Assembly: GCA_035632755.1 (NCBI GenBank) | Contig: DASQGF010000168.1 | Coordinates: 1-62,135, forward strand | Reading direction: 5' to 3' | Length of the DNA stretch: 62,135 nt | DNA from: Terriglobales bacterium | Lineage (GTDB): Bacteria > Acidobacteriota > Terriglobia > Terriglobales > Acidobacteriaceae | Shown: piece by piece, positions 4,039-12,411 of the stretch | How positions within the stretch are numbered: position 1 is the first letter of the stretch | How the letters are laid out: every line of letters starts with the position of its first letter | Notes under the pieces: model-generated | Told to the model about the DNA's origin: nothing | What the model saw: only the letters and a program-made list of their open reading frames with translations | Database searches by the model: none | Position numbers and translations under genes: made by a program

Positions 4039-4113
4039 TGGTGGGCGCTGTAGGATTCGAACCTACGACTTCCACCGTGTGAAGATGGCACTCTACCGCT
4101 GAGTTAAGCGCCC
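4039..4113 (-). tRNA. tRNA-Val (anticodon CAC), CCA encoded
   Basis: Hand-folded cloverleaf on the minus strand. Acceptor GGGCGCT/AGCGCCC, D arm ACTC..GAGT, anticodon stem CCATC/GGTGG with loop TTCACAC, T arm GTAGGTTCGAATCCTAC, then discriminator A plus CCA. Confidence 0.9.
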
Positions 4114-5079: not shown

Positions 5080-5169
5080 ATGCATCTGGAATCGATGATC
5101 ATGCTTGCAATCTGCATCCTGATGGCAGGGTACCTAGTGTACGCGTTGTTAAGGCCGGAGGTGTTCTGA
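5080..5169 (+). CDS. kdpF: K+-transporting ATPase subunit F
   Basis: 29 aa, [29 protein letters not shown]. It contains the KdpF hallmark GYLVYAL(L/I). GAGGA lies 7 nt upstream. Position is directly ahead of kdpA. Confidence 0.8.
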
Positions 5170-5321
5170 TGATTGGCCAGGGATTGCCATCGGTGGCTCT
5201 GCTCGGGGCACTCGTGCTGATCTGGATCCTGCTGGCAACGATAAAAGATACACGCCCACGCCGGCACCCAGAGGCAGTTGCCAACGGGCAATACAAGCGC
5301 AGCGAGGAGAAGCTCTCATGA
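5169..5321 (+). CDS. 50-aa single-TM peptide between kdpF and kdpA
   Basis: [55 protein letters not shown] lies 7 nt upstream. Its ATG overlaps the kdpF stop (TGATG) and its TGA overlaps the kdpA ATG (ATGA), so it is translationally coupled on both sides. Confidence 0.5.
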
Positions 5322-7121: not shown

Positions 7122-9146
7122 ATGGCAAAGCAGAAAGCGGTTTGGGAATGGAGGATCGTGCGCCGCGCGATCCTGGATTCCTTCATCAAACTCAACCCGC
7201 GCCACATGATGGGCAATCCCGTCATGTTCGTGGTGGAAATCGGGAGCGTGATCACCACCGTGCTGCTGTTCCGCGGAGGCACGGCGTTCGGGTTCAACCT
7301 GCAGATCACCTTATGGCTGTGGTTCACCGTGCTGTTCGCCAACTTCGCCGAAGCCATGGCCGAAGGGCGCGGCAAGGCACAAGCCGACACGCTGCGCAAA
7401 GCCCGTGCTGAAACCATTGCGCACCGGCTGGTTGGCGATGGCAAGATCGAGCAGGTGCCCAGCTCGAAGCTGCGGGCGGGAGATATGGTTATCGTTTCTG
7501 CCGGCGACTTCATTCCCTCCGACGGCGAGATCACCGAGGGGGTCGCGTCGGTCGACGAGTCGGCGATCACTGGCGAGTCCGCGCCCGTCATCCGCGAAGC
7601 TGGCGGTGACCGCTCGGCCGTGACCGGTGGCACTCGGGTTCTGTCCGACCGCATCAAAGTCAAGATCACTTCCAATCCTGGGGAAACCTTCCTCGACCGC
7701 ATGATCGCCCTGGTCGAAGGCGCCGAGCGTCAGAAGACACCGAATGAGATCGCGCTGAACATTCTGCTGGCCGGCCTGACCATCATCTTCTTGCTGGCGG
7801 TGGTGACCCTGCAGCCGTTCGCGATTTACTCCGGCTCGCCGCAAACCGTGTTTGTGCTGGTGTCGTTGCTGGTCTGCCTGATTCCCACGACCATTGGTGG
7901 ACTGCTCTCGGCCATCGGCATCGCCGGCATGGACCGCCTCATTCAACACAACGTCCTGGCCATGTCCGGCCGTGCGGTGGAAGCTGCCGGCGACGTCAAC
8001 ACCTTGCTGCTGGATAAGACAGGCACGATCACTCTGGGCAACCGGCAGGCATCTCAGTTCATTCCTGGCCCTGGGGTCACGGAAATGGAACTCGCCGATG
8101 CCGCGCAACTGTCTTCCCTTGCAGACGAGACTCCCGAGGGCCGCTCCATCGTCGTGCTGGCCAAAGAGAGATACGGCATTCGCGGCCGCGAACTCGCCTC
8201 CCACCAGGCGGAATTCGTGCCTTTTACGGCCCAGACCCGCATGTCTGGCGTGAACCTGAACGGCTTCGAGATCCGCAAAGGCGCCGCCGATGCCATCGCC
8301 AATTACATCCGCCAGAACGGTGGTGAGCTGCATCAGGAGGTCCAGGCGACAGTGGACCAGATCGCCCGCTCCGGAGGTACGCCGCTGGTGGTGGCGGAGA
8401 AGCGTCGCGGCGCGCTGGGGGTGATCGAGCTCAAAGACATCGTCAAGGGCGGCATGCGCGATCGCTTCGATCAGCTCCGCGCCATGGGAATCCGCACGGT
8501 GATGATCACCGGGGACAATCCTTTGACCGCTGCCGCCATCGCGCGCGAAGCCGGCGTGGATGACTTCCTGGCGCAGGCCACCCCCAAAGAGAAGATGGAC
8601 CTGATCAAGCGCGAGCAGGCCGCCGGCAAGCTGGTGGCGATGACCGGCGATGGCACCAACGACGCTCCCGCCCTGGCTCAGGCCGATGTTGGTGTCGCGA
8701 TGAACACCGGCACCCAGGCGGCCAAGGAAGCCGGCAATATGGTGGACCTGGATTCCAACCCCACCAAGCTGATCGAGGTAGTGGAGATCGGGAAGCAGCT
8801 TCTGATGACTCGCGGTTCGCTGACCACGTTTTCCATCGCCAACGACGTGGCCAAGTACTTCGCCATCATTCCCGCCATGTTCGCCGGTACCTTCCCGGTG
8901 CTGAATGCACTCAACATCATGCGCCTGCAAACGCCGGCATCGGCGATCCTGGCGGCGGTGATCTTCAATGCGCTCATCATCATCGCCCTGATTCCGCTGG
9001 CGCTGCGCGGCGTGAAATACCGCCCCATGGGCGCGGCAGCGCTGCTGCGACGGAATCTTTGGATTTACGGCGTGGGCGGCATCATCGTGCCCTTCATCGG
9101 GATCAAGCTGATCGACATGATGATCACGCGTGTCGGGCTTGCGTAA
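7122..9146 (+). CDS. kdpB: K+-transporting P-type ATPase subunit B
   Basis: 674 aa with the DKTGT phosphorylation motif ([14 protein letters not shown]) and [12 protein letters not shown]. Confidence 0.95.
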
Positions 9147-9158
9147 GTGGAGTAGGCA

Positions 9159-9749
9159 ATGAAAAAGAATCTTGTTACTGCGGTATTGATGACCATCGCC
9201 ACCACGGTTCTGCTAGGGATTATTTATCCGCTGGTCGTGACCGGACTGGCCAAGCTGCTTTTTCCCGGCAAAGCTAACGGCCAGCTCATCGAGCGCAACG
9301 GAAAGATCGTCGGCTCGCGCATCATCGGCCAGCCCTTTACCGGCCCGGGGTATTTCTATTCGCGTCCGTCTGCCGCGGGCAACAATGGCTACGACGCTGC
9401 GAATTCCGGCGGCTCGAATCTCGGACCCACCAACCAGAAGCTGATCGACCGTGTGAAGCAGGACGCTGCACGGCTGCAGGCCGAAAATCCGCAGCAGCCC
9501 GTGCCCATCGAGCTTGTAACCACATCCGCCTCCGGGCTTGACCCCCACCTTTCGCCGGCTGCAGCCGATTTCCAAGTTCCCCGGGTCGCGCGCGAACGCG
9601 GACTCAGCGAAGACGAACTCCGTCGTGTGATCGCAGAGCATACGGAGGGCAGGCAGCTCGGCTTTCTGGGCGAGCCCAGAGTCAACGTCCTGGAGCTGAA
9701 CCTCGATCTGGATTCAGCTCATCCTCTCGAAAAAAGAGCCGCGAAGTGA
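9159..9749 (+). CDS. kdpC: K+-transporting ATPase subunit C
   Basis: 196 aa with N-terminal TM helix. Contains conserved KdpC segments (GSNLGPTNQKLIDRV, ASGLDPHLSPAAA). Confidence 0.9.
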   Translation: MKKNLVTAVLMTIATTVLLGIIYPLVVTGLAKLLFPGKANGQLIERNGKIVGSRIIGQPFTGPGYFYSRPSAAGNNGYDAANSGGSNLGPTNQKLIDRVKQDAARLQAENPQQPVPIELVTTSASGLDPHLSPAAADFQVPRVARERGLSEDELRRVIAEHTEGRQLGFLGEPRVNVLELNLDLDSAHPLEKRAAK

Positions 9750-9888
9750 GATAGTAGACCCGTTTCTACAATCCATGGCCGGGGTGCGGGAATTCGCTCT
9801 CGCACTTGGTGTATATGGCGTCCTCGCCTACCTCCTACGAGTCGCGCAACGACCTGGGCGAACTGGACCGACTTCCCCGCACCTGAGG

Positions 9889-9917
9889 TTGTTGTTCTGA
9901 TAACAGAACGGTACAAT
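9889..9917 (+). promoter_or_regulatory. candidate sigma70-type promoter (TTGTTG-17 nt-TACAAT) with a 16-bp palindrome GTTCTGATAACAGAAC in the spacer
   Basis: Read directly: -35 at 9889-9894, -10 at 9912-9917, palindrome at 9894-9909. It lies about 85 nt upstream of the repeat-protein ORF in a locally AT-richer stretch. Confidence 0.35.
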
Positions 9918-9999
9918 TTGCCTCAATTTGGGGGCAAGATTTTCTCGCTTTCGCGATCAGAAGAGAGTCTTGATCAAGTGCCCTTCGGAGGTTATTAGC

Positions 10000-10230
10000 A
10001 TGAAGAAGTGGAACGATCCGACCAATCCTATGAACCCGAATAGCCCATTAAATCCGATGAACCCGATGAATCCCAACAGTCCGCTGAATCCCATGAACCC
10101 GCGGAATCCGGCCAGCCCGCGCAACCCGATGAACCCAGCAAATCCCCTGAGTCCTCTGAATCCCATCAACCGTAGACGACGGATGGAGCGTATGAACCCG
10201 CCCAATCCGTTTCGGCGCAATCGGCCGTAG
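10000..10230 (+). CDS. 76-aa X-(N/S)-P triplet-repeat protein with basic C-terminal tail
   Basis: MKKWNDPTNPMNPNSPLNPMNPMNPNSPLNPMNPRNPASPRNPMNPANPLSPLNPINRRRRMERMNPPNPFRRNRP. GGAGG lies 8 nt upstream of the ATG. Synonymous codons vary between repeats. The track ORF 9928..10230 is an N-terminal extension. Confidence 0.6.
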   Translation: MKKWNDPTNPMNPNSPLNPMNPMNPNSPLNPMNPRNPASPRNPMNPANPLSPLNPINRRRRMERMNPPNPFRRNRP

Positions 10231-10725
10231 GAAAGAGAGGAGGGCCACAGACCTCAAGGTCAGCGTAGGAATGGATGCTCCAGCCGTCGCGCTTTGCACG
10301 AAGGTGCCACCCCCAGTTGTTGAAGCACGCCTATGGCGGAGGACGCAGCGCATTCCTCACAAAGTTCTTAAGGCTCGTCCAAGGAATCAGCCCCTGAAGG
10401 GCCTTTCCTTAATGCTCTGGAGTAGGTTAGGACAGCCGAATCACCGGATTTGGTGTTGCACTTCTGAGTTAAGCACCCACGCGCGGTGTGCTCATTGTCG
10501 CAAAACCTGTCTTCCCCAACCCTCTTTCCCAAACCCGGCGACTCTGCGAAAATCCTTGCTACCACGTACCCTATGCCCCCGGACCGAGACCGACCGGCAG
10601 CTCCTGAAGGCACGCAACTTTCGTCCCGCCAGCGGGTTAGTAGAGATGTGAGCAGCCTAGCGCTCAGCCAGGAACTGCCGGCAGGCGCCGCTGCCCGTCC
10701 AAGACTGGCCGGGGAGGGGGGGACG

Positions 10726-11316
10726 ATGGCCGCATCCTCAGCGGCCTTGCACCTGCTCAGCGACGCCGAGGTGATGCTGCGCGTAGCGGCGGGGGATGAT
10801 TTTGCCTTCGACTATCTGGTGGAGAAGTTCCGGCGTCCACTCGTGAGTTTTATGTATCGCATGACGCACAACCAAGCGGTGGCGGAAGAACTGGCGCAGG
10901 AAGTCTTCCTGCGGGTATACCGTTCGCGGGCGAGTTACGCAGCGGACGCCAAGTTCACCACCTGGCTGTACCGGATCGCGACCAACCTGGCGGTGAACCA
11001 CGCCCGCGACACCAAGGCGGAGCGCTCGGGCACCAGCCTGGATGAACCCGATCCGCATACGGGGCTGACCATCGACGTGGCCGATCCCAAGACGACGGCA
11101 GAGCAGAAGCTGTTGCGGCGGGAGCGGCTGGTGGCCATTCGCAGAGAAGTGGAAGCGCTACCCGAGCGGCAGAGGCTGGCGGTGATCATGCATAAGTACC
11201 AGAGCATGGATTACCGGCAGATCGCGGAAGTGCTGAAGCTGAGCGAGTCGGCCACCAAGTCGCTGCTGTTCCGCGCTTACGAAACACTGAGGGTGAAGCT
11301 CGAGAAGTTTTTGTAA
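10726..11316 (+). CDS. ECF-type RNA polymerase sigma-70 family factor
   Basis: 196 aa from an internal ATG preceded by GGGGAGGGGGGG. Region 2 (FLRVYRSR..TWLYRIATNL) and region 4 HTH (MDYRQIAEVLKLSESATKSLLFRAYETLR) are present. Confidence 0.9.
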   Translation: MAASSAALHLLSDAEVMLRVAAGDDFAFDYLVEKFRRPLVSFMYRMTHNQAVAEELAQEVFLRVYRSRASYAADAKFTTWLYRIATNLAVNHARDTKAERSGTSLDEPDPHTGLTIDVADPKTTAEQKLLRRERLVAIRREVEALPERQRLAVIMHKYQSMDYRQIAEVLKLSESATKSLLFRAYETLRVKLEKFL

Positions 11317-11326
11317 CGGGGGAGTT

Positions 11327-11839
11327 ATGACCTGCAAGGAAGCACGCGAATACATGCTGGACGCGGCCCAGCAAAACACCGCCGCCGGCCTCCACCCCAG
11401 CGCGCCAAAAGCGGGCGCGCCGGGGACCCCGCTGGACGAGCACCTGCGCTCGTGCGCGAGCTGCGCCCGGGAACTGGAATCGATGCGCCGGACCATGACG
11501 CTGTTGGACGAGTGGGAGGCGCCCGAACCTTCTCCCTATTTCGATTCCCGGCTGCGTGCGCGCGTACGCGAAGCCGCGGCCGAACCTCGGAGCTGGCTGG
11601 AGTGGCTGCGCAAGCCGGCCATCGCCTTCGCCCTGGCTGTGTTGATGGTGGTGAGCATCACGATCTTCCGCAATGCTCCTGAGCACACGCCGGTTGCGAT
11701 GGACAGGCCGGCGCCCACCGTGGGTCAGGCTGGCACGGCGGTCAGCGACTTGCAGGAACTCGAGCACGACGGCGATATGTACGCCAACTTTGACATGCTG
11801 GATGATCTGGGAACGGAGGCGGAGACGGCCAATCCGTAG
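11327..11839 (+). CDS. anti-sigma factor (zf-HC2 type, single TM)
   Basis: N-terminal MTCKEAREYML...EHLRSCASCAREL (H-x3-C-x2-C). TM helix AIAFALAVLMVVSITIF. Directly follows the ECF sigma gene. Confidence 0.8.
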   Translation: MTCKEAREYMLDAAQQNTAAGLHPSAPKAGAPGTPLDEHLRSCASCARELESMRRTMTLLDEWEAPEPSPYFDSRLRARVREAAAEPRSWLEWLRKPAIAFALAVLMVVSITIFRNAPEHTPVAMDRPAPTVGQAGTAVSDLQELEHDGDMYANFDMLDDLGTEAETANP

Positions 11840-11844
11840 CTGAC

Positions 11845-12411
11845 GTGCTGAAGATCAGATCCATTGCGATATTGGTTCTTGCCGCTCTGGCGCTGGCGGT
11901 AGCGGCTGAGCCGCGGGCGCTGGCGCAGCGCCAGGACAAAGACAGACAGGAGAAATGGGGAGACCGCCAGCGCATGAAGGGCCCCGGTCCGCATCGCGGA
12001 GAATGGCTGCGCAAGAACCAGAACCTGCCTCCGGCAGAGCAGGAGAAAGCCCTGCGGAACGACCCCGGGTTCCGGCAGCTTGCTCCGGAGAGGCAGGAGC
12101 AGCTCATCAATCGGCTGCGCAATTTCAACAGCAGGCCGCCGGAGCAGCGGCAGCGGATTCTGGAGCGTATGGAGACCTTCGAGCACCTGCCGCAAGGCCA
12201 GCGGCAGCAGGTGCGCAACCTCTACGGCCAGATGCGGGACCTGCCCGAGGACCGCCGCATCGCCGTGCACCAGGCCGCCCGGCAGTTGGGTGGGATGAGT
12301 CCGGGCGAACGCCAGCGCATGATGAATTCTCCGCAATTCCGGCGGCGCTTCTCTCCTCAGGAGCAGAACCTGGTCCGCGGACTCGCCGAGTTAGAACCCG
12401 GCCAGCGCTAG
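11845..12411 (+). CDS. secreted Gln/Arg-rich helical-repeat protein (DUF3106-like), third gene of the ECF operon
   Basis: GTG start and signal peptide LKIRSIAILVLAALALAVAAEPRALAQ. Repeated P-E/G-x-R-Q motifs. The family name is from memory. Confidence 0.7.
   Translation: MLKIRSIAILVLAALALAVAAEPRALAQRQDKDRQEKWGDRQRMKGPGPHRGEWLRKNQNLPPAEQEKALRNDPGFRQLAPERQEQLINRLRNFNSRPPEQRQRILERMETFEHLPQGQRQQVRNLYGQMRDLPEDRRIAVHQAARQLGGMSPGERQRMMNSPQFRRRFSPQEQNLVRGLAELEPGQR

Follow-up and report, generated by a model that had tools for sequence, protein, structure and literature searches.

A 76-Residue Asn-Pro Repeat Protein from a Terriglobales Bacterium as a Minimal Member of an Undescribed Protein Family

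Introduction

Tripeptide-periodic proline repeats are already known as a kind, and among the closest described cases is the XPZ region of the beta protein of group B Streptococcus (Bac, an IgA-Fc-binding surface protein), in which proline occupies every third residue (PMC3190825). Here, we analyzed a gene for a repeat of this general kind in a contig of a Terriglobales bacterium (Acidobacteriota; GenBank assembly GCA_035632755.1, contig DASQGF010000168.1). The whole stretch analyzed, 62,135 nucleotides (nt) of the forward strand, is referred to as the window. The gene, an open reading frame (ORF) at 10000-10230 on the plus strand, encodes a protein of 76 amino acids (aa), referred to as the window protein, with 17 consecutive triplets that have Pro as the third residue, 16 of them N/S-P and one D-P. 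Judged from sequence comparisons, the window protein belongs, as a minimal, module-only, and very basic member, to a family that numbers more than 100 proteins from several phyla, and both this family and the 12-residue module on which it is built are undescribed.

The XPZ region, which reportedly adopts a polyproline-II structure, resembles the window protein and its 17 triplets in having a long stretch with Pro as every third residue. Against the XPZ segment (positions 836-908) of NCBIfam model NF038253, the window protein scores 11.6 bits (E = 0.045) and its best homolog, from soil metagenome locus L009, has an E value of 0.0011; these scores (11.6-16.9 bits) concern the XPZ segment only and lie far below the 1700-bit cutoff of the 1127-position model. 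However, XPZ is a surface-exposed segment of a Firmicute protein, whereas the window protein is only 76 aa long and has no export signal, and XPZ itself lacks the Asn-Pro dipeptide rule, the 12-residue unit, the Trp cap, and the basic tail described below.

Other described repeats share single features with the window protein. The V8 protease of Staphylococcus aureus (SspA; PDB entries 1qy6 and 2o8l) carries at its C terminus (D/N)-N-P tripeptides in the same register, repeated about 12 times (NPDNPDNPNNPDNPNNP), and this is where a profile of the family, searched against all PDB sequences, found its best match (1qy6_A residues 218-265, NPDNPDNPNNPDNP, E = 0.0044), which is weak and composition driven. 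This tail differs in being an acidic appendage of a secreted serine protease, one that we take to be of unknown role and not needed for protease activity, and it has no Ser-Pro-Leu, 12-residue unit, Trp cap, or basic tail. The P-x-x region of amelogenin (Pfam PF02948), with its three-residue Pro period, is the top Pfam match for the window protein and several relatives, but the window protein scores 18.8 bits and L009 22.8 bits, short of the 27-bit gathering score, and the resemblance to this vertebrate enamel matrix protein is compositional only. In bacterial and phage collagen-like G-x-y proteins, a three-residue period likewise goes with an extended helical conformation rich in Pro. A collagen triple helix requires Gly as every third residue and is impossible for the window repeat, because no such Gly is present; the codon table of the gene contains no Gly at all. 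Finally, the NANP/NPNA repeats of the Plasmodium circumsporozoite protein, likened here by description alone, are also built around the Asn-Pro dipeptide, which favors Asx-Pro and type-I beta-turns, but they have a four-residue period and belong to a surface antigen of a eukaryotic parasite.

Results and Discussion

A 12-residue unit within the tripeptide period

The translation of the ORF is MKKWNDPTNPMNPNSPLNPMNPMNPNSPLNPMNPRNPASPRNPMNPANPLSPLNPINRRRRMERMNPPNPFRRNRP, with the stop codon TAG at 10228-10230. An initial annotation of the window, made from the sequence alone, had described a 76-aa ORF with 17 X-(N/S)-P triplets and an Arg-rich tail, and apart from the single D-P triplet this description is accurate. 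The strict three-residue period that it emphasized is present as well, though it is nested inside an equally strict 12-residue unit, NPxNPxSPxNPx, in which Ser-Pro forms every fourth triplet. Four such 36-nt units occupy 10024-10167 on the plus strand (twice NPMNPNSPLNPM, then NPRNPASPRNPM and NPANPLSPLNPI), and Tandem Repeats Finder (TRF) reports the array with a period of 36 nt and 3.4 copies. A degenerate DNA pattern of the unit gave 13 overlapping matches at the gene and none elsewhere in the window, against 0.00 in shuffles of the window.

The units are flanked by basic segments on both sides. Before them lies an N-terminal cap, MKKWNDPT (10000-10023), in which alignments with the family identify basic residues and a Trp, and after them an Arg-rich C-terminal tail, NRRRRMERMNPPNPFRRNRP (10168-10227); a helix predicted at residues 55-65 begins two codons before the tail, at 10162. 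With an isoelectric point (pI) of 12, a net charge of +10, and a low-complexity Asn/Pro composition, the window protein is highly hydrophilic, and Met makes up 11% of its residues. The gene is preceded by the Shine-Dalgarno sequence GGAGG at 9987-9991, 8 nt before the ATG, as had been noted initially.

An undescribed family with varied N termini

The homolog search proposed in the initial annotation returned 21 matches with the window protein as a single query and 137 matches (E ≤ 0.001) with a profile of ten members, all unnamed or "hypothetical" and none with a Pfam domain. An exhaustive phmmer search collected 711 representatives at E ≤ 0.001, many of them generic 3-periodic Pro-rich proteins with G-P-x or P-x-x repeats, a count that does not represent family size. 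For the window protein, Pfam, NCBIfam, PADLOC, and PHROGs yielded nothing above threshold and only compositional matches, among them a weak one to a phage tail-fibre family (PHROG tail-fibre family 17587, E = 0.003-0.024), and a full-text literature search for the repeat motif strings found no relevant paper. The initial impression that the protein belongs to no described family is thus borne out. In a scan of species-representative genomes, loci were found only in Mycobacterium, Nocardia, Clostridia, and other Actinomycetes, and none in Acidobacteria.

Throughout the family, the module consists of basic residues, a Trp, a few further residues, and then units of the form N-P-[M/A]-N-P-[N/A]-S-P-L-N-P-[M/N]; the 12-residue unit recurs in L009, P0001, P0005, P0063, P0132, and others. 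Among 124 family proteins, Ser-containing triplets are most often four triplets apart, and the variable position is occupied mainly by Asn (22%), Ala (21%), Leu (20%), and Met (15%). A Trp lies no more than eight residues before the repeats in 58 of these 124 relatives; examples of the residues before the repeats in relatives are MKRKW, QRRW, KRW, and AEW-ARS (MKKW-NDP in the window protein). The tails of a cytoplasm-facing subgroup are basic (RRRR, NRNRNR, RHRH, or HKR). Members of this subgroup have a pI of 10.2-12 (most about 12) and a net charge of +6 to +16, and an exported or tail-anchored subgroup has a pI of 4-5.7. Some proteins (P0038, P0059, P0060, and P0062) contain the whole module twice.

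What precedes or follows the module varies widely. An N-terminal hydrophobic segment is present in 81 of the 124 relatives, and a membrane helix followed by basic residues occurs in P0001, P0006, P0025-P0036, P0047 (Ktedonobacteraceae), and L050/L051. Other members start with a DnaJ-like CxxCxGxG zinc finger (P0015, P0022, P0031, P0042, P0054, and P0071), with weak matches to DnaJ_CXXCXGXG and anti-TRAP, with signal peptides accompanied by Cys pairs (Mycobacterium, Mycobacteroides, and Nocardia), or with lipoprotein signals (P0018 from Ruficoccus, P0056, and P0094), and a C-terminal membrane helix follows the module in P0014, P0016, P0020, and P0082. Bare modules like the window protein were seen only in L009, P0126, and P0098. 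The window protein shares with the family the tandem 12-residue units, the basic residues and Trp before the repeats, and the basic tail; it lacks the helix, signal peptide, or zinc finger that most members carry at the N terminus, an architecture that is common and not defining. It had been described initially as a stand-alone protein; it does stand alone, but as the minimal version of a family most of whose members are membrane anchored or exported.

Two other kinds of repeat protein were seen alongside this family. A second, larger metagenomic family of small secreted proteins (loci L010-L049, e.g., L013 5786-6130 and L037 5908-6264; proteins P0009, P0107, P0117, P0227, and P0232) consists of a signal peptide, DPGFDEKYERDYNIFNP, approximately 11-residue repeats that read NPxNxYxPDNP(L/F), and the ending PFEPLNR, and it matches no Pfam family. 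In addition, a contig with 31% GC encodes a 1076-aa protein (L043 5713-8943) with a coiled-coil-like N terminus, about 200 residues of N/S-P tripeptides, and a large C-terminal domain, a layout that resembles a phage tail fibre with a repeat stalk.

The plus strand is under selection as a peptide

Units 1 and 2 of the window gene encode the same 12 residues and differ at 10 of 36 nucleotides, every difference being synonymous. The best homolog, at L009 5995-6258, is an 87-aa stand-alone ORF on a soil metagenome contig; its protein begins MKRKWNDPMNPANPNSPLNP (start MKRKWNDP) and ends HRRR, and the sequence GGGGA is found 9 nt ahead of the start codon. When the two genes were compared codon by codon, the plus frame gave proportions of synonymous (pS) and nonsynonymous (pN) differences of 0.72 and 0.23, respectively, and a ratio of nonsynonymous to synonymous substitution (dN/dS) of 0.12. 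The antisense frame, which encodes G-F/L-x repeats, has a dN/dS of 0.38, and the remaining frames either exceed 0.8 or contain stops. Upstream, the two DNAs are unrelated, and conservation starts at the ATG and runs through the WNDP codons; this, together with the frame tests, identifies ATG 10000 as the start and the plus strand as the coding strand.

The codon comparisons indicate that the ORF is under selection on the peptide and is not a product of DNA slippage, in keeping with the initial proposal, which had pointed to the synonymous codons varying between repeats. The counts confirm this variation (AAT 10 and AAC 9 for Asn; CCG 12, CCC 5, CCT 2, and CCA 2 for Pro). The initial annotation had also considered that conservation might favor the opposite strand, and the comparison with L009 points the other way. 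That the locus is no gene at all, being a 36-bp tandem DNA repeat that is open by chance, or that its true product is the antisense G-F/L-x ORF (9957-10220, minus strand), is scarcely credible. Such readings could draw on the detection of the array by TRF and on an antisense frame that is uninterrupted in the window as well as in L009 and has wobble positions in common with the plus frame. However, in the plus frame, synonymous changes strongly predominate among the differences that separate units or homologs, and the Shine-Dalgarno sequence and ATG are found only on the plus strand. Further, all 19 Asn codons are AAY and never AAR, whereas in the antisense frame their third positions would be expected to vary freely, because they are four-fold degenerate Gly positions there, and protein relatives across phyla have varied N-terminal domains fused in the plus frame. 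It is therefore very probable, as far as sequence evidence reaches, that ORF 10000-10230 is a genuine, independently translated, monocistronic gene located in lineage-specific DNA between kdpC and an extracytoplasmic function (ECF) sigma operon and that it encodes a minimal, module-only member of the family.

Predicted structure and proposed function

With an alignment of 40 family sequences, AlphaFold2 modeled the window protein with a mean predicted local distance difference test score (pLDDT) of 82.4 (86-89 in the repeats) and a predicted template modeling score (pTM) of 0.50. DSSP assigned neither helix nor strand to residues 1-54 of this model and a short helix to residues 55-65 (PINRRRRMERM), which is also present in the run without an alignment. 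A Foldseek search with the confident model gave 0 matches in the PDB and nothing significant among viral models. The initial annotation had linked the three-residue period to a polyproline-II helix and had suggested structure prediction as a check. A non-helical, non-strand model is compatible with that idea, and the repeats are modeled confidently when the alignment is supplied, although the model separates extended from compact forms no further.

Overall, we hold our best explanation, gene and mechanism taken together, with moderate confidence; in it, the protein would be an extended Asn-Pro rod with basic ends and a putative function. The 48-residue repeat would form an extended, fairly stiff rod of the polyproline-II or Asn-Pro-turn type; with a rise of 3.1 Å per residue, a full polyproline-II conformation would give a length of about 15 nm. 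Pro, Asn/Ser, and the variable residue (Met, Leu, Ala, or Asn) would each lie along their own face of such a rod, and the basic N-terminal cap and the predicted Arg-rich helix and tail may attach to an anionic partner, which could be nucleic acid, the ribosome, or an acidic membrane lipid. In that case, the role of the protein would be that of a spacer or tether and not of an enzyme, toxin, or precursor peptide. The full mechanism, joining a stiff extended rod with aligned residue faces, basic ends on an anionic partner, and a spacer or tether role, is modeled and tentative, and we put it forward as a possibility.

Several points weigh against this reading. Without the alignment, the pLDDT of the repeats drops to 44-51, and the model appears to fit an extended polyproline-II rod as well as a compact form made of Asn-Pro turns. 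A basic partner is no requirement of the repeat itself, as the exported acidic relatives demonstrate. As to the family, low-complexity sequence inflates E values, and the exhaustive search draws in generic 3-periodic Pro-rich proteins, with some of its matches resembling off-frame translations of collagen-like sequences. Finally, close relatives of the window organism have no such gene at the kdpC locus and it is therefore dispensable for the lineage.

A bolder version, which we regard as rather unlikely, is that the 12-residue unit represents a new ordered rod or solenoid architecture without a solved counterpart and a new domain occurring in several phyla in two flavors. Such a domain would be found in Acidobacteriota, Chloroflexota, Actinomycetota, Verrucomicrobiota, and Firmicutes. 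One flavor would be basic and cytoplasm facing, serving as a tether between a membrane or zinc finger and nucleic acid or ribosomes, and the other would be acidic and exported, with the window protein as the minimal free-standing version.

The composition of the repeat also brings other roles to mind. Met residues (or His in relatives) at the variable position and in the tails might serve as stripes of thioether or imidazole ligands for soft metals (Cu/Ag), or Met might be a sacrificial sink for oxidants. Met accounts for 11% of the residues in the window protein and, family-wide, for 15% at the variable position, several times the typical proteome value, MNPM yields a repeated MxxM spacing, and His- or Met-rich repeats or tails occur in P0132 (NPHNPMNPNSPH), P0071, P0027 (MHRSMHRSMHKPMHKPMHKR), P0024, and P0059. 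However, we find this buffer role quite improbable: many members have Ala or Asn at these positions and no His, none of the contexts inspected has copper- or silver-resistance genes close by, and by our own estimate successive variable residues in a polyproline-II rod lie about 9 Å from each other, a distance too great for one chain to chelate a metal. A role in stress protection like that of hydrophilins or disordered chaperones, acting non-specifically and with no defined partner under osmotic, K+, or envelope stress, would suit the very hydrophilic, low-complexity Asn/Pro sequence, the location with a K+-uptake operon on one side and an ECF stress sigma operon on the other, and the status of the gene as an accessory gene of a soil lineage. 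We nevertheless think it very unlikely, in that the position-specific conservation of the 12-residue unit (SPLNP) and the Trp cap go beyond bulk composition and the neighborhood is not conserved in relatives.

Peptide products were also considered. Three-residue repeat precursors matured by radical S-adenosylmethionine (radical-SAM) enzymes, such as the His-Xaa-Ser repeat proteins (PMC13128918), are known, and their existence is one argument for reading the window protein as a modified precursor resembling the ribosomally synthesized and post-translationally modified peptides. The other is the tail RMNPPNPFRRNRP, which is rich in Arg and Pro as would suit a bioactive peptide that targets the ribosome or DnaK. 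Peptides of the apidaecin, oncocin, and Bac7 type are made from a secreted precursor and carry PRP-type Arg-Pro motifs, with which they bind DnaK or the exit tunnel of the ribosome, whereas the window protein has no signal, pro-region, or PRP motif. It has no leader either, no radical-SAM enzyme, protease, or transporter is adjacent in the window or at the loci of relatives, family tails read NRNRNR, RRR, or RHRH rather than the PRP motifs of Pro-rich antimicrobial peptides, and most relatives are membrane anchored. A precursor or bioactive peptide is thus highly improbable. The initial annotation had rightly recorded that both a signal peptide and an adjacent modifying enzyme are missing; its candidate roles as a precursor or as a ribosome- or chaperone-targeting peptide gain no support, there being no maturase or transporter, no PRP-type motifs, and no conserved neighbors.

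The region upstream of the gene

A 41-aa ORF with a membrane-helix-like segment (FALALGVYGVLAYLL) lies at 9775-9900 on the plus strand, in the same frame as the repeat gene, and its status is uncertain. Basic residues follow the helix-like segment, and the ORF ends with TGA TAA inside an inverted repeat. It could have remained from an ancestor that was membrane anchored, encode a small membrane protein, or have arisen by chance. If a relic, the repeat gene would be the surviving C-terminal part of a membrane-anchored family member, either as a re-started fragment or as a decaying pseudogene, with the ORF at 9775-9900 as its former helix part. The shared frame, with only TGA TAA and 32 open codons between the ORFs, would fit such a split, as would the order of helix, basic linker, Trp, repeats, and basic tail, which is the commonest architecture of the family, and the presence of both ORFs in one lineage-specific block downstream of kdpC. 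We consider this origin unlikely. The homolog at L009 is bare as well, sharing the MK(R)KWNDP start and preceded by several in-frame stops, the window gene has its own strong Shine-Dalgarno sequence and ATG, and its repeats are still under purifying selection. Further, the 41-aa ORF and linker show no significant similarity to any N terminus in the family, the coding score of the ORF is no better than that of other frames, it has no Pfam match, and a shared frame arises by chance in 1 of 3 cases.

The initial annotation had also assigned the gene its own promoter-operator, and this part of it is not supported. The promoter candidate, TTGTTG-17-TACAAT (9889-9917, plus strand), combines a weak -35 hexamer (TTGTTG, 9889-9894, 3 of 6 matches to the consensus) with a better -10 hexamer (TACAAT, 9912-9917, 5 of 6) at a spacing of 17, and a promoter scan requiring 4 of 6 matches per hexamer reported no site. 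The 16-bp palindrome proposed in its spacer exists as an inverted repeat, GTTCTG-ATAA-CAGAAC (GTTCTGATAACAGAAC, 9894-9909, 14 of 16 positions symmetric), but one that in fact has 6-bp arms and a 4-nt spacer. By our rough estimate, a 6-bp inverted repeat with a short spacer occurs by chance in a given 30-bp stretch about 1 time in 15. As an operator, the repeat was rejected: only one further match with 1 mismatch is present in the 62-kb window, and no counterpart of either the promoter or the inverted repeat was found upstream of L009, the only close homolog.

In addition, a terminator scan located a terminator-like hairpin at 9917-9938 on the plus strand, beginning at the last base of the proposed -10 and followed by a T-rich run (ATTTTCTCGCTTTCG). 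The 56-nt segment containing the hairpin folds with -14.1 kcal/mol (z-score, -1.76). This hairpin may end the transcript from kdpC. A promoter and a terminator could coexist here, with a start about 7 nt after the -10 falling within the left arm of the hairpin. No intrinsic terminator was found after the gene, where folds of 10225-10440 were no better than shuffles. In sum, what the initial annotation said of the protein holds, and its promoter-operator does not.

Genomic context

The gene sits between kdpC (9159-9749) and an ECF sigma operon made up of the sigma factor (10726-11316), a putative anti-sigma factor (11327-11839), and a DUF3106 protein (11845-12411); the neighbors in the window thus comprise kdpABC, the ECF sigma factor, and the DUF3106 protein, along with a transglutaminase-like protein and proline dehydrogenase. 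Comparison with related KdpC sequences assigns the window to Terriglobales (Acidobacteriota). In three close relatives within this order (L062, L063, and L064/L065), KdpC is 89-95% identical and the DNA of the kdp operon is 85-91% identical, and homology stops at window positions 9742-9750, that is, at the kdpC stop codon. The gene therefore lies in lineage-specific DNA. A search for a repeat ORF downstream of kdpC in all six frames found none in these close relatives, whose downstream genes differ among themselves and from those in the window, and the end of kdpC is a recurrent synteny break.

The initial annotation had proposed checking synteny with the kdp or ECF operon, and in relatives it is not conserved. 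Family members usually stand alone between convergent or divergent genes, in settings that include a gap between a phosphoesterase and an M20 peptidase, the inside of a pyrimidine cluster, and positions beside AAA/TPR regulators or a CadC-like regulator. No shared neighbor recurred among five different contexts; no maturase, transporter, toxin partner, or defense gene was recurrent, and a defense-system scan gave no match.

Rfam, searched at a permissive threshold over 9000-11500, returned nothing, and over the whole window it returned only tRNA-Val (4039-4113). The stretch from 10231 to 10725, about 490 nt up to the ATG of the sigma gene at 10726, contains no convincing ORF, Rfam match, or terminator. 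The sigma gene is preceded by an ECF-like motif (GGAAC, 10670-10674, and CGTC, 10696-10699), with a spacing longer than usual. Elsewhere in the kdp region, a 50-aa membrane-helix-like ORF (5169-5321, plus strand) is located between kdpF (5080-5169) and kdpA (starting at 5318), its start overlapping the kdpF stop (TGATG) and its stop overlapping the kdpA start (ATGA); it has no match in PADLOC or PHROGs, and in the relative L063, kdpF directly abuts kdpA. In L064 and L065, about 150-200 nt downstream of kdpC, the sequence GGCGGGATTCGAACCCGCG resembles, by eye, the end of a tRNA gene with its T arm, encoded on the opposite strand. An RNase_H_2-family gene comes next, and the arrangement suggests that this relative has an integration hotspot there.

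Conclusions

We suggest that ORF 10000-10230 be called as a gene, that it not be linked to the kdp or ECF operons, and that the proposed operator be left unannotated. More than 100 small proteins with strict, position-specific conservation are missing from Pfam and NCBIfam, probably because low-complexity filters hide the family from these databases. The 76-residue form in the window is easy to synthesize and lends itself to circular dichroism, NMR, or SAXS, and if it proves to be an ordered rod, the family would add a building block to the non-alpha, non-beta architectures, alongside collagen, polyproline-II bundles, and XPZ-type stalks.

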